Part shown: positions 17,171 to 62,871 of the stretch, piece by piece
Numbering within the stretch: position 1 is the first letter of the stretch
Layout: each line of letters starts with the position of its first letter
NCBI GenBank assembly: GCA_045596605.1
Contig: JAZOCR010000143.1
Location: 3,743 to 67,742, forward strand
Direction: 5' to 3'
Origin: Eubacteriales bacterium
GTDB lineage: Bacteria; Bacillota; Clostridia; Oscillospirales; CAG-382
DNA length: 64,000 bases
The notes under the pieces: model-generated
Seen by the model: the letters and a program-made list of their open reading frames with translations, nothing else
What the model was told of the DNA's origin: nothing
Databases searched by the model: none
Translations under genes and position numbers: made by a program

Positions 17171-17237
17171 TCTTTTTTTCTTTAAAGATGGCACTTTTTG
17201 GTGACAAGGGATTTGTTTCCAAATAATTAACGGTGGC

Positions 17238-17268
17238 AAAACAGAGGCTTAAAAGGCCTCTGTTTTTA
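17238..17268 (+). terminator. Intrinsic terminator after the DUF896 gene
   Basis: CAGAGGCT (17242-17249) pairs with GGCCTCTG (17255-17262), followed by TTTTT. Confidence 0.7.
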
Positions 17269-17460
17269 CTTTGCGCCGGATATGTGTTTCAGAATTGTGA
17301 ATTTTAAAGATTTTTATGTAATTTAAGGCTTAAAATCGCCTGATTCATTTGACTTTTTGCGGCACTTGTGATATAATAATGAAGATGGGTATATATTTTA
17401 ATATGTAGAATTTTTTGGAACTTTTTGCCCTGCCGCTATGCGACAGTATGGAGGACTATA

Positions 17461-43231: not shown

Positions 43232-43232
43232 G

Positions 43233-43616
43233 TCTTGACCTGCCAGTAAGCCGTGTTCTGTATCTGGCAATCATCTATCTTGTCCTTACGTTACCGTAAG
43301 GCTCTGTGCCACTTGCGGCGAGCCGAGCAAGCTTTGCACCGGAACCGGTGCGTGCCACCTCGTGTTGCTTCGGATAGGGTTTACAGGAGTCCTGTGTTAC
43401 CATAGGACCCGGTGAGCTCTTACCTCGCCTTTCCACCCTTGGCTCTGCGAATGCTCGCTTTCATACCTCCATAAAGAAGTAGTAGCCGGTATATCTCTGT
43501 TGCACTCTCCCTGGGGTCACCCCCGGCGGACGTTATCCGTTATCCTGCTCTGTGAAGCACGGACTTTCCTCACTCAGACCAAAAAGGTCCTTTGCGCGAT
43601 TGCCTTGACAGGTCAG
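43233..43616 (-). ncRNA. rnpB: RNase P RNA
   Basis: The reverse strand contains GAGGAAAGTCCG, AGGGTGGAAAGGCGAGGTAAGAGCTCACCG, GTAAACCC, AGATAGATGATTGCC and ACAGAACACGGCTTAC in the canonical order. P1 pairs TGACCTGTCA (5' end) with TGGCAGGTCA (3' end). It has its own promoter and terminator. Confidence 0.92.
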
Positions 43617-43738: not shown

Positions 43739-44200
43739 TTACTTAAGGAAGGGAAGGCTTCTGATGATAACGGGTTCAACCGCCTTGCCCATACAAGCCT
43801 GAACGAGAGTGATGATCTGTACTACTCCGAGTACGCCCATTGCAATAACGCCAACTATCGGAACGATAATTGTCCAGCAAAGAATTGCTATAACAAGTCC
43901 GAGAGCCCAGCTTGTAACGAAGAACTTCATAGCCTGTCTTGCGTGGAAGTCAACGAAAGCGGAATTGGGTGCACAGATTTTTGCAACGAGTATACCGAGT
44001 ATGCTTGCAATGTAGGGAAGAAGTGCCCACACCTTGTTGTCGGAAATGTCCTTTGCGTCAAATTCTGCTGTGCGGTCGTGGGGGTTGTACTTGGGTGCGT
44101 AAGGCTGCTGCTGATAGCCGTTCGGCGCATAGCCCTGATTGGGGTTGGGGTTCTGGTAGTACTGCTGATTCTGCTGATTCTGGTTCTGCTGATTGTCCAT
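43739..44200 (-). CDS. DUF4870-like membrane protein with a Q/N-rich N-terminus
   Basis: The N-terminus MDNQQNQNQQNQQYYQNPNPNQGY is followed by 3-4 TM helices and the FHARQA motif typical of DUF4870 (from memory). Confidence 0.7.
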   Translation of the reverse strand: MDNQQNQNQQNQQYYQNPNPNQGYAPNGYQQQPYAPKYNPHDRTAEFDAKDISDNKVWALLPYIASILGILVAKICAPNSAFVDFHARQAMKFFVTSWALGLVIAILCWTIIVPIVGVIAMGVLGVVQIITLVQACMGKAVEPVIIRSLPFLK

Positions 44201-44294: not shown

Positions 44295-44921
44295 TCAGAC
44301 TCCTTTTGTTGAAAGTCCTTTTTCAAAGTTATCTTTTGTTATTTCATAAACGTGTATAGTCTTGTATTCGCCCTTGACAAACATTGAATTGCGGTAAATT
44401 CCCTCAAGAGTCATACCAAGCTTTGCCATCACACGCATAGAGGCGTTGTTGCCCTCCATGAACTTTGCGCATATTTTTTCCGCACCAAAGCTTTCAAAAC
44501 AGAACTTCATCACAGTCTGAGCTGCCTCTGTTGCATATCCCTTTCCCCAGAATGAAGGTGAAAGAACATAGCCTATTTCAATGGAATTATCCTTTTCGTC
44601 AAAGGAGGTTATACCGCACGTGCCTATAAATTTTCCACTTTCCCTGTGGGTAAGTCCGAAGTCCCAGAAGGCACCGCTGTCGTATTTTTTCTGAAGAAGC
44701 TTTATGTACCGCTCTGTTTGCGTAATGCTTACGTGGGGTGTCCATAAAAGATATCGTGTTACCTCGGGAAGCCTTGAATACTCGTACATATCAGCCGAGT
44801 TTTCCGGGAGGATTTTTTTGTAAATCAGCCTCGTGCTTGAAAGCTCCGGAGGGGCCTTAAACACCTTTCGTATTTTTTCACCGAGAGTGTAGGGCATTTC
44901 TGTGCGGTGTCTTAAAAACAT
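44295..44921 (-). CDS. GNAT family N-acetyltransferase (RimJ/RimL-like)
   Basis: Acetyl-CoA-binding pattern WGKGYATEA, about 208 aa. A TTGCAT-17-TATAAT promoter lies about 80 nt upstream. Confidence 0.85.
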   Translation of the reverse strand: MFLRHRTEMPYTLGEKIRKVFKAPPELSSTRLIYKKILPENSADMYEYSRLPEVTRYLLWTPHVSITQTERYIKLLQKKYDSGAFWDFGLTHRESGKFIGTCGITSFDEKDNSIEIGYVLSPSFWGKGYATEAAQTVMKFCFESFGAEKICAKFMEGNNASMRVMAKLGMTLEGIYRNSMFVKGEYKTIHVYEITKDNFEKGLSTKGV

Positions 44922-46407: not shown

Positions 46408-46526
46408 TTTCTTTATGTCCTTTCGAGTTTTGTTTTATTTTAATAAGCATTGTAATTATATCACAACCCATAAAACTTGTCAAGCGTTTGAACGTATAGG
46501 ATTTTGAGTAAATTTTCCCGAAAGAC

Positions 46527-46555
46527 TTGAAATATCAAAAGGAATATGCTATAAT
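46527..46555 (+). promoter_or_regulatory. Promoter of pnuC (TTGAAA-17-TGcTATAAT)
   Basis: TTGAAA at 46527-46532, 17-nt spacer, TATAAT at 46550-46555 preceded by TGC. Confidence 0.65.
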
Positions 46556-46561
46556 AAAGTC

Positions 46562-46711
46562 AAACCGTAGTGTTGCAGTGTTATTGATATTATGCCGCAC
46601 ACACTTATATCTCTGCCACCGGGTAGAAAAAATGCCAAGGCATTCGGCGTACATCGTTAGGTCTTAGAAGATGTGCGTGCGAATGCTTATTTTTTTAGAC
46701 AGGAGAAGATT
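46562..46711 (+). promoter_or_regulatory. pnuC leader with terminator/antiterminator alternative (candidate riboswitch or attenuator, class unknown)
   Basis: The terminator at 46640-46696 has a 16-bp stem with one bulge (GCATTCGGCGTACATC / GATGTGCGTGCGAATGC) followed by TTATTTTTTT. AATGCC (46631-46636) can instead pair with GGCATT (46639-46644), sequestering the terminator 5' arm. Confidence 0.5.
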
Positions 46712-47428
46712 ATGAAAAGAATAAAATCCCATATCGGCTATTTTACAAAAGGAGAGCTTATGCTATGGTGCTCTTCGGTGCTGCTTATACTTGCTGCATT
46801 TTTATTGTTTGACAGAGAAAATCACCTCACACTTGCAGCATCGCTTATAGGCGTAACTTCACTTATTTTCTGCGCTAAAGGAAATCCGATAGGGCAGGTG
46901 CTTATGCTGATGTTCAGTGTCATATATGGCATAATTTCTTATTCCTTTACATATTACGGAGAGATGATAACCTACCTTGGAATGACGGCGCCGATGGCAG
47001 TATTTTCTCTTGTAAGCTGGCTTCGTCACCCCTTTAAAGGAAAAAGGTCAGAGGTTGAGGTGAATAAGATTTCCGTAAAGGAAATGGTTTTCGCTCTCGT
47101 ACTTACAGCTCTTGTTACCGTAGCTTTTTATTTTATTCTCCGCTACTTCAATACCGCAAACCTTTTCCCAAGCACTGTTTCCGTAACAACAAGCTTTTTT
47201 GCCGTTTATCTGACGTTCAGACGCAGTGAATATTATGCTCTTGCCTATGCTGCAAACGACGTCGTGCTGATAATTTTATGGATACTTGCCACCGCTGAAA
47301 ATATATCCTATCTGTCGGTAATTATTTGTTTTATCGTTTTTCTTGTAAATGACCTTTACGGATATTATAATTGGCACAGAATGAGAAGAAAGCAAGCAGA
47401 AAAAGTCTCGTATATGGATGTAAAATAA
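46712..47428 (+). CDS. pnuC: Nicotinamide riboside transporter PnuC family protein
   Basis: About 7 TM helices and PnuC-like segments (LIGVTSLIFCAKGN, WLRHPF). AGGAG lies 6 nt before the ATG at 46712. Confidence 0.85.
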   Translation: MKRIKSHIGYFTKGELMLWCSSVLLILAAFLLFDRENHLTLAASLIGVTSLIFCAKGNPIGQVLMLMFSVIYGIISYSFTYYGEMITYLGMTAPMAVFSLVSWLRHPFKGKRSEVEVNKISVKEMVFALVLTALVTVAFYFILRYFNTANLFPSTVSVTTSFFAVYLTFRRSEYYALAYAANDVVLIILWILATAENISYLSVIICFIVFLVNDLYGYYNWHRMRRKQAEKVSYMDVK

Positions 47429-61941: not shown

Positions 61942-62871
61942 ATGGGGATAAACAGTAAATTCAAAATCAAATCAGGGCAAAAAAAGGACACACAAAAAAA
62001 CTGCACGGGAGAAATTTTTAATATTCCACCCTATCTTATCTGCCCAAGTCCGCTTCTTCCCAGAACGGATTTCTCTGATACCTCGCTTTGCAGTCTTGCA
62101 GACAGTATACGCAGATACGGCATGCTTCAACCTCTGTGTGTGTGTCTTTCAAAGGACGGAAAATACGAGCTTGTCGCAGGCGAAAGAAGACTTCGTGCGG
62201 CGCTTCTTCTGAAGCTTCCCACTGTCCCTTGTGTGCTTGTGGGAAGCTATGGAAAAGACGCAGAATATCTTTCTGTCATTGAAAATATTCAGCGTGAGGG
62301 GCTTAATATGTTTGACGAGGCAAAAGCCATAAAAAGACTGATGGAGAGAGATAAGATTTCCCAGGAACAGCTTGCGCTTATTTTGTCAAGCAGCACTGCG
62401 CAGATTGAAAAAAAGCTAAGGCTCACACAGTTTTCAAGAGCGGAAATGCAGGAGATTCTGCACCTTGGAATATCACCTGACATCGCTTCACTTTTTCTTG
62501 ACGTGCCCTGTTCTGTCCGTTATTATACCATAAAGCTTTGTACCGAAAAGGAACTGAACGAAAGCAGTATAAGAACTGTCTGCAAGAGGCTTTCAGAAAT
62601 AAAAAATCCTTCTCCCGATGACCTTGAAGAAATACTTTCAAAGGTTATCATAAAAAAGGAAGAGTCTTCTATAGAAGATACAGAGCAAAGTGAGAAAGCA
62701 GATATAAAAGAAAAAAGAACGCAGAAAATAGTGCTTCACGACCTTCGCTCCTTTGAGATTTCGCTGGAAAAATCCTGTGACGTGCTTCGCAGAGCAGGAC
62801 TCTATGCAGGCTTTGATAAGCAGGAGAATAACAGCGAAACGGTTTATACCGTCAGAGTCAAAAAAGAATAA
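61942..62871 (+). CDS. ParB/Noc-like protein (ParB N-terminal CTPase-fold domain + HTH)
   Basis: LQPLCV..YELVAGERRLRAA arginine-patch motif and ENIQREGLNMFDEA. ATG at 61942 lies 7 nt after AAGGGGAG. No ParA is adjacent. Confidence 0.8.
   Translation: MGINSKFKIKSGQKKDTQKNCTGEIFNIPPYLICPSPLLPRTDFSDTSLCSLADSIRRYGMLQPLCVCLSKDGKYELVAGERRLRAALLLKLPTVPCVLVGSYGKDAEYLSVIENIQREGLNMFDEAKAIKRLMERDKISQEQLALILSSSTAQIEKKLRLTQFSRAEMQEILHLGISPDIASLFLDVPCSVRYYTIKLCTEKELNESSIRTVCKRLSEIKNPSPDDLEEILSKVIIKKEESSIEDTEQSEKADIKEKRTQKIVLHDLRSFEISLEKSCDVLRRAGLYAGFDKQENNSETVYTVRVKKE

Follow-up and report, generated by a model that had tools for sequence, protein, structure and literature searches.

A leader RNA upstream of a PnuC-family gene in a Eubacteriales bacterium is very probably a guanidine-IV riboswitch

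The window analyzed here is a 64,000-nt stretch of DNA from a Eubacteriales bacterium (contig JAZOCR010000143.1, positions 3,743 to 67,742 of the forward strand). It carries a pnuC gene with its own promoter and a structured leader, and the features of this locus, numbered from the first nucleotide of the window, are the following:

46527-46555, + strand: sigma-70-type promoter with -35 box TTGAAA (46527-46532), 17-nt spacer and -10 box TATAAT (46550-46555)
46562-46612, + strand: non-conserved 5' extension of the leader, outside the proposed riboswitch, containing AACCGTAGTG
46613-46626, + strand: P1 hairpin CUGCC-ACCG-GGUAG (arms 46613-46617 and 46622-46626, loop 46618-46621), 5' half of the proposed aptamer
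46618-46620, + strand: kissing strand ACC of the P1 loop, pairing with GGU 46660-46662 ("P2" of Salvail et al.)
46627-46638, + strand: linker, in which AAUGCC (46631-46636) pairs with GGCAUU (46639-46644) and sequesters the base of the terminator 5' arm
46639-46655, + strand: terminator 5' arm, paired in 98.2% (lower stem) and 97.7% (upper stem) of cells in the covariation analysis
46656-46669, + strand: conserved terminator loop GUUAGGUCUUAGAA, 14 nt, 3' half of the proposed aptamer
46670-46696, + strand: terminator 3' arm (46670-46687, with bulged G46679) and U-tract (UUAUUUUUUU, to 46696)
46702-47428, + strand: RBS (GGAG, 46702-46705) and PnuC-family coding sequence (ATG at 46712, stop at 47428, 238 aa)

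The pnuC product matched PF04973 (E=9.8e-34, 117.3 bits vs. a cut-off of 27.3), TIGR01528 (77.9 bits vs. a cut-off of 42.45) and the PDB entry 4QTN (E=1.1e-17). TIGR01528, an NCBIfam equivalog, labels the window protein a nicotinamide riboside transporter; taken at face value, this label suggests vitamin uptake rather than guanidine export. On the minus strand, a perfect consensus promoter (TTGACA-17-TATAAT plus TG, 12/12 positions) was found at 46455-46483, divergent from the pnuC promoter, and it presumably drives ybaB (46407-46060) and recR (46056-45433). Farther along the minus strand are a GNAT-type acetyltransferase gene (44295-44921), whose NCBIfam matches were weak and all far under the cut-offs, a 153-aa ORF (43739-44200) whose N-terminus is rich in Q/N/P (MDNQQNQNQQNQQYYQNPNPNQGY...) and precedes hydrophobic segments and which has no NCBIfam match, and a bacterial class A RNase P RNA (43232-43615; full-length match, 228.7 bits, E=5e-73).

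The pnuC promoter agrees with the consensus at 11 of 12 positions and carries an extended -10 TG at 46547-46548, which bears out the strong promoter proposed in the preliminary description of this DNA. Transcription is expected to start at ∼46562, leaving ∼50 nt between this start and P1; in the 55 aligned related leaders the -10 box usually lies 10–30 nt from P1. The stretch 46562-46612, including AACCGTAGTG, has no counterpart in the 55 related leaders compared and no significant structure (z = -0.72). The earlier proposal that the ∼70 nt upstream of the terminator could form a sensing domain is contradicted by these results. Two CCG(G)TAG-like elements had also been pointed out there: CCACCGGGTAG (46616-46626) is indeed conserved, whereas AACCGTAGTG is absent from the related leaders.

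The 3' half of the leader forms an intrinsic terminator in which 46639-46655 pairs with 46670-46687 (17 pairs, one bulged G46679, a 14-nt loop) and is followed by UUAUUUUUUU. The predicted energy was -23.3 kcal/mol with z = -4.69, and none of 200 shuffled sequences folded equally well. This confirms the stem-loop of the preliminary description with one correction in its placement: the terminator had been said to end 15 nt before the RBS, but 15 nt is the distance from the end of the U-tract to the ATG (46712), and the distance to the RBS is 5 nt. Minimum free energy folding indicated two states: for nascent RNA that stops at 46678 it gave P1, the linker hairpin and the upper terminator stem, and for the full-length RNA it gave P1 together with the complete terminator. 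A terminator and a competing hairpin are both present, and the view of the leader as a transcription attenuator of the riboswitch type was upheld. The A-run of the linker (46627-46632) is complementary to the U-tract (46690-46696) and extends the terminator helix in the full-length fold. A terminator-like match on the minus strand (46648-46634) is merely the reverse complement of the linker hairpin and A-run.

To compare leaders of pnuC homologues, as the preliminary description had suggested, we performed a protein-guided scan with one genome per species. It gave 71 loci with PnuC relatives at 50–70% identity, mostly in metagenome-assembled genomes of Clostridia/Oscillospiraceae. A motif of ∼85 nt is common to the window (46613-46696) and the leaders of 55 of the 71 loci. 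It consists of CUGCC-ACCG-GGUAG, a linker, GCAUUCG..ACAUC-GUUAGGUCUUAGAA-GAUGU..CGAAUGC and a U-run. A structure comprising P1, a 3-bp loop-loop helix and the lower and upper terminator stems was scored on an alignment of 56 sequences (A1). In this alignment 98.6% of 1232 cells were paired, vs. 27–42% for slid controls, and 14 of the 22 pairs had changes on both sides, including six of the seven pairs in the upper terminator stem.

About 10 pnuC homologues lack the guanidine-IV motif upstream (L012, L014, L016, L026, L031, L034, L036, L038, L061, and L065). Some of these leaders, e.g., L016 and L034, have a different hairpin and U-run. At another locus, L010 (∼930-1010, + strand), the pnuC leader retains the linker hairpin together with the terminator and the conserved loop (GCGUUAGGUCUUUGAAG), but no P1 can be recognized upstream; this leader may be a decayed riboswitch with constitutive termination.

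The conserved positions lie in two loops. In the 56-sequence alignment the P1 stem was paired in 99.6% of cells, with C-G to U-A exchanges at two pairs, and the columns of the terminator loop GUUAGGUCUUAGAA were invariant or nearly so. The kissing helix between the loops was paired in 100% of cells, with double changes at two of its three pairs. Across gene classes the kissing pair ACC/GGU alternates with GCC/GGC, GCU/AGC, and ACU/AGU, and the exchange of ACC/GGU for GCC/GGC was found within every gene class of the set. A sensor located upstream of the terminator, as envisaged before, does not fit this arrangement; the aptamer instead has one half in the P1 loop and the other in the terminator loop, and the two loops kiss via ACC:GGU.

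We next examined the linker. The preliminary description had noted that AATGCC (46631-46636) could capture the terminator 5' arm at GGCATT (46639-46644), and this pairing was recovered: RNAfold draws five inner pairs (AAUGC/GCAUU) with -4.4 kcal/mol in isolation, and the same hairpin is the one present in the fold of nascent RNA ending at 46678. Covariation was assessed on a separate alignment made for 106 distinct PnuC-linked linkers (the 56-sequence alignment is unsuitable here, the linker being badly aligned in it). The hairpin was paired in 89.6% of cells, vs. 20–42% for slid controls, and had 21 double-change cells vs. 6.6 ± 2.2 in shuffles, with none of 500 shuffles reaching 21. Variants include GAUGC/GCAUC, GGUGC/GCACC, GUAUGC/GCAUAC, and AAUGUU/AACAUU. 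RNAalifold applied to the alignment of the linker segment predicted no pairs. The window linker is 11–12 nt long, vs. a median of 10 nt over 177 instances. A linker hairpin of at least 5 bp was found in 78% of PnuC-linked instances, 33% of the nine NimA-linked instances, 10% of MATE-linked instances, and in none (0%) of the SMR-linked or B3/4-linked instances. We concluded that the linker hairpin is real, covarying and largely confined to PnuC-linked members.

A degenerate RNA-only pattern derived from the pnuC leaders was then scanned over metagenome and viral collections and gave 128 instances. The downstream gene encoded PnuC in 64 of them, a MATE pump (PF01554) in 23, an SMR/SugE protein (PF00893) in 11, a PNPOx/NimA-like protein (PF12900) in nine, a B3/4-domain protein (PF03483) in six, and an EamA protein in one. 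Since this pattern came from pnuC leaders, the proportions of the gene classes are biased, but the set of families recovered is unbiased. All gene classes of the set have an identical aptamer core consensus. Guanidine was suspected as the ligand from the combination of PnuC, MATE, SMR, NimA-like and B3/4 genes. It was reported previously that guanidine-IV riboswitches are associated with SugE (31%), PnuC (25.2%), MATE (22.6%), NimA (10.5%), B3/B4 (5%), and GNAT (2.5%) genes (Lenkeit 2020, PMC7736828), and the PnuC, MATE, SMR, NimA-like and B3/4 families recovered by our scan are these published partners. The GNAT gene of the window (44295-44921) lies 1.7 kb from the leader on the opposite strand and has no motif; GNATs are a minor partner of the class, and this gene is probably unrelated to the riboswitch. 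Eight contigs classed as viral (L192-L199, IMG/VR) carry the motif upstream of SMR, NimA-like or PnuC genes; these contigs may represent host DNA next to prophages or guanidine-resistance cargo carried by phages. At three loci (L144, L182, and L184) the motif precedes one and the same 75-aa ORF, which has no obvious family and may be a spurious call masking the real regulated gene.

Guanidine-IV (GGAM-1) was described as two hairpins and a pseudoknot, with conserved loop nucleotides and a Rho-independent terminator as the second hairpin, in 2,882 examples mostly from Firmicutes (Lenkeit 2020, NAR, PMC7736828). An independent study discovered this class under the name mepA motif (Salvail et al., 2020, bioRxiv 10.1101/2020.10.21.349134). 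The members 95 Lla and 92 Rti bind guanidine with a KD of ∼0.2 mM (Lenkeit 2020 supplement, PMC7736828), and guanidine binding and guanidine-induced read-through have been shown for members from L. lactis, R. timonensis, and C. botulinum (PMC7736828; bioRxiv 10.1101/2020.10.21.349134). In the literature available, the validated members precede sugE/emrE or mepA, not pnuC (PMC7736828; bioRxiv 10.1101/2020.10.21.349134).

We aligned the window with 95 Lla and 92 Rti (alignment A2). The alignment is gapless through the P1 loop and the terminator loop, which are of equal length and layout with few tolerated substitutions. The P1 loop core CCACCGGG (46616-46623) is identical in 95 Lla and has one covarying substitution (CCGCCGGG) in 92 Rti. 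The latter reads CUGCC-GCCG-GGUAG ... AUC-GUUAGGCCAUAGAA-GAU, with a covarying GCC/GGC kissing pair, and checked by eye it fits the exact IUPAC pattern derived from the pnuC leaders. In 95 Lla, mutating G66, U67 or G72 abolishes guanidine binding and reporter induction, and mutating G62 reduces binding (Lenkeit 2020, PMC7736828). The counterparts of G66, U67, and G72 in the window are G46661, U46662, and G46667, so that every nucleotide whose mutation abolished binding in 95 Lla is kept. In the G62 region the window has CGUUAGG, not CAGUAGG, and the validated 92 Rti likewise has CGUUAGG. The window thus has in common with guanidine-IV the P1 hairpin with its CCACCGGG loop, the terminator loop carrying GUUAGGUCUUAGAAG, the covarying kissing loop, the short linker, the nucleotides essential for binding, a PnuC-family partner (25.2% of published members) and a Firmicutes/Clostridia host. 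No differences were found in the aptamer; the window adds the ∼50-nt non-conserved 5' extension and the covarying linker hairpin. A pairing analogous to that hairpin (AAUCGU/ACGAUU) can be read from the sequence of 95 Lla. In the available texts of the discovery papers the segment appears as a "linking region" or as a variable, single-stranded linker, with no mention of such a hairpin (PMC7736828; bioRxiv 10.1101/2020.10.21.349134).

The Rfam cmscan proposed in the preliminary description was run. At gathering thresholds it returned only RNase P in the whole window, and no known class matched at the leader at E ≤ 10. Rfam 15 also assigned no family to eight SMR-, MATE-, NimA- or B3/4-linked instances (L133, L191, L114, L119, L143, L090, L091, and L117); because these other guanidine-IV instances are unmatched as well, the missing leader match reflects a gap in the Rfam 15 library. 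The preliminary description had found no aptamer that it could name, and here the answer differs: the element corresponds to guanidine-IV, described in 2020, for which Rfam 15 holds no model that detects it. Its remark that a TPP consensus is missing agrees with the Rfam result, in which no TPP match appeared even at E ≤ 10. The ligands that it had drawn from the PnuC annotation (NAD, nicotinamide riboside, thiamine) found no such agreement, as no NAD+-I, NAD+-II or TPP match was obtained at E ≤ 10 and the RNA fits guanidine-IV. A covariance model (R1) gave 46611-46695 a score of 87.5 bits (E about 8e-20). No second copy of the riboswitch turned up in the window by regex or covariance-model searches. 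Two candidates were rejected: 17211-17272, an 18-bit match, is an ordinary terminator without the conserved loop, and a loose match to a 17-mer, near 62609 on the minus strand, falls within coding-like sequence.

Other riboswitches share single traits with the leader. Gd4v is, according to the accessible text of Lenkeit 2022 (RNA Biol, PMC9788692), a guanidine-IV variant with a nucleotide other than G at D1 and an extra terminator-loop hairpin (D2), which precedes transaminase, GNAT and MATE genes and never sugE. It has in common with the window the two hairpins and pseudoknot, the terminator as 3' hairpin, the P1 loop CACCGG and GGU in the second loop. The 14-nt loop of the window contains no D2 hairpin, and Gd4v RNAs fit into alignment A2 only with an insertion of ∼12 nt. 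At D1, which we equate with the G72 position from the text and mutant tables, the window has G46667 (UUAGAAG) vs. UUACAAG in 95 Csp and UUGAAAG in 95 Dsu, both Gd4v RNAs. The exact pattern of the window also precedes SMR genes, unlike Gd4v. Of the four features that set Gd4v apart from guanidine-IV (D1 to D4), the comparison covered D1 and D2, and identity with Gd4v was rejected on these two grounds, the apparent G at D1 and the absence of D2. NAD+-II (the pnuC motif of Streptococcus) shares the position upstream of pnuC, but has an internal bulge between two stems, an RBS pseudoknot, translational OFF control and a different ligand (Panchapakesan et al., 2021; Brewer et al., 2021, PMC8632094). 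It was rejected for lack of an Rfam match at the gathering threshold or at E ≤ 10 and because its architecture is absent from the leader; TPP was rejected for lack of an Rfam match at E ≤ 10. The HMP-PP riboswitch (thiS motif) likewise has its aptamer embedded in an intrinsic terminator, an analogy drawn by Salvail et al. (bioRxiv 10.1101/2020.10.21.349134), but differs in sequence, ligand and gene set and has no Rfam match at the leader. Guanidine-II (mini-ykkC) also uses ligand-dependent kissing of two hairpins to control guanidine exporters; it has two ACGR tetraloops and acts on translation, whereas the window lacks the conserved ACG trimer.

We concluded with high confidence that 46613-46696 (+ strand) is a guanidine-IV riboswitch (mepA motif/GGAM-1) that controls the PnuC-family transporter gene by transcription antitermination. 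Class membership rests on sequence and structure, on covariation in P1, the kissing pairs, the terminator and the linker hairpin, and on gene associations. By analogy with the validated members, the window RNA itself would bind guanidine; the binding (KD ∼0.2 mM), the ON polarity and the steric, linker-length mechanism are carried over from the literature on those members.

Could the PnuC-linked elements be a specificity variant of guanidine-IV, as Gd4v is, for another cation such as a guanidino compound or a nicotinamide-type molecule matched to the PnuC substrate? Gd4v is a precedent for a near-identical scaffold with a different ligand, PnuC-family proteins are otherwise vitamin importers, and the extra covarying linker hairpin is largely limited to PnuC-linked members. 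However, the core consensus of the PnuC-linked elements equals that of the SMR-linked ones and matches validated binders at every conserved position, D1 appears to be G, D2 is absent, and the linker hairpin lies outside the conserved loops and has its analogous pairing in validated 95 Lla. We consider a specificity variant improbable. A related proposal holds that the PnuC-linked guanidine-IV-like RNAs are a functional subclass in which the linker hairpin adds a strand-sequestering anti-terminator to the steric kissing-loop mechanism, with an extreme version in which, as for Gd4v, the ligand would not be free guanidinium; we give it a small chance as well.

The chance is smaller still that the leader is an OFF riboswitch responding to NAD+/nicotinamide riboside or to thiamine, with a novel aptamer in 46562-46630. 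The PnuC annotation and the existence of NAD+-II riboswitches in Streptococcus speak for such a switch, but neither NAD+-I/II, TPP nor any other Rfam family matched at E ≤ 10, 46562-46612 is neither conserved nor significantly structured, the NAD+-II architecture differs (internal bulge, RBS pseudoknot), and the same RNA precedes MATE, SMR, NimA-like and B3/4 genes, which are unlinked to NAD or thiamine. We regard this reading as refuted because the conservation and gene-association data oppose it. Just as implausible is a plain intrinsic terminator, or a protein-dependent attenuator, without a small-molecule sensor. The terminator hairpin does dominate the consensus, which was the stated reason that the class was overlooked (Salvail et al., 2020, bioRxiv 10.1101/2020.10.21.349134). 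Yet a simple terminator needs neither a 14-nt near-invariant loop nor a covarying loop-loop pairing, other members of the class bind guanidine directly in vitro, and, because the flanking genes are divergent, there is no co-directional upstream gene to terminate.

Guanidine-IV was reported to be a genetic ON switch in which the ligand prevents termination via a kissing loop and a short linker, with sensing confined to a narrow co-transcriptional window (PMC7736828; bioRxiv 10.1101/2020.10.21.349134). Applied to the pnuC leader, the guanidine-IV model would work as follows. Transcription would start from the 46527-46555 promoter, and P1 (46613-46626) would fold first. In the PnuC-linked subgroup, linker nucleotides 46631-46636 would next pair with the start of the terminator 5' arm (46639-46644). 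Once the upper terminator stem has been transcribed together with its conserved loop, guanidinium could stabilize the kissing of the P1 loop and the terminator loop, with ACC 46618-46620 and flanking conserved G/C on one side and GGU 46660-46662 and the conserved UUAGAAG on the other. Because the loops would be locked and the linker is short (∼12 nt), the lower terminator stem could not close, and the polymerase would read into pnuC (ON). Without guanidine, the 3' strand 46680-46687 would displace the weak linker hairpin (-4.4 kcal/mol) and complete the -23 kcal/mol terminator, and transcription would stop at the U-tract. The linker hairpin would be an auxiliary anti-terminator, keeping the base of the terminator 5' arm occupied until the 3' strand displaces it. 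The expected behavior, by analogy with the characterized members, is that of an ON switch for a putative guanidine transporter.

PnuC- and MATE-class genes linked to this riboswitch have been proposed as new guanidine exporters (Lenkeit 2020, PMC7736828); in our literature search, no published test of whether PnuC-like proteins transport guanidine was found. Because the pnuC leader corresponds to a guanidine-IV riboswitch, the NCBIfam label of nicotinamide riboside transporter for the window gene is probably misleading, and the PnuC-like protein would move guanidine. The window element is an ordinary member of a class described in 2020, with a known gene association, and is in this respect already known. 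Of all that was found here, only the linker hairpin may extend published work, and it is a minor point.

The correct annotation for this part of the window is that the pnuC leader is a guanidine-IV riboswitch. With the present gap in Rfam 15, cmscan-based pipelines will go on flagging members of this abundant class as unknown. For the PnuC-linked members, the linker hairpin could refine the mechanistic model of the class and guide construct design.
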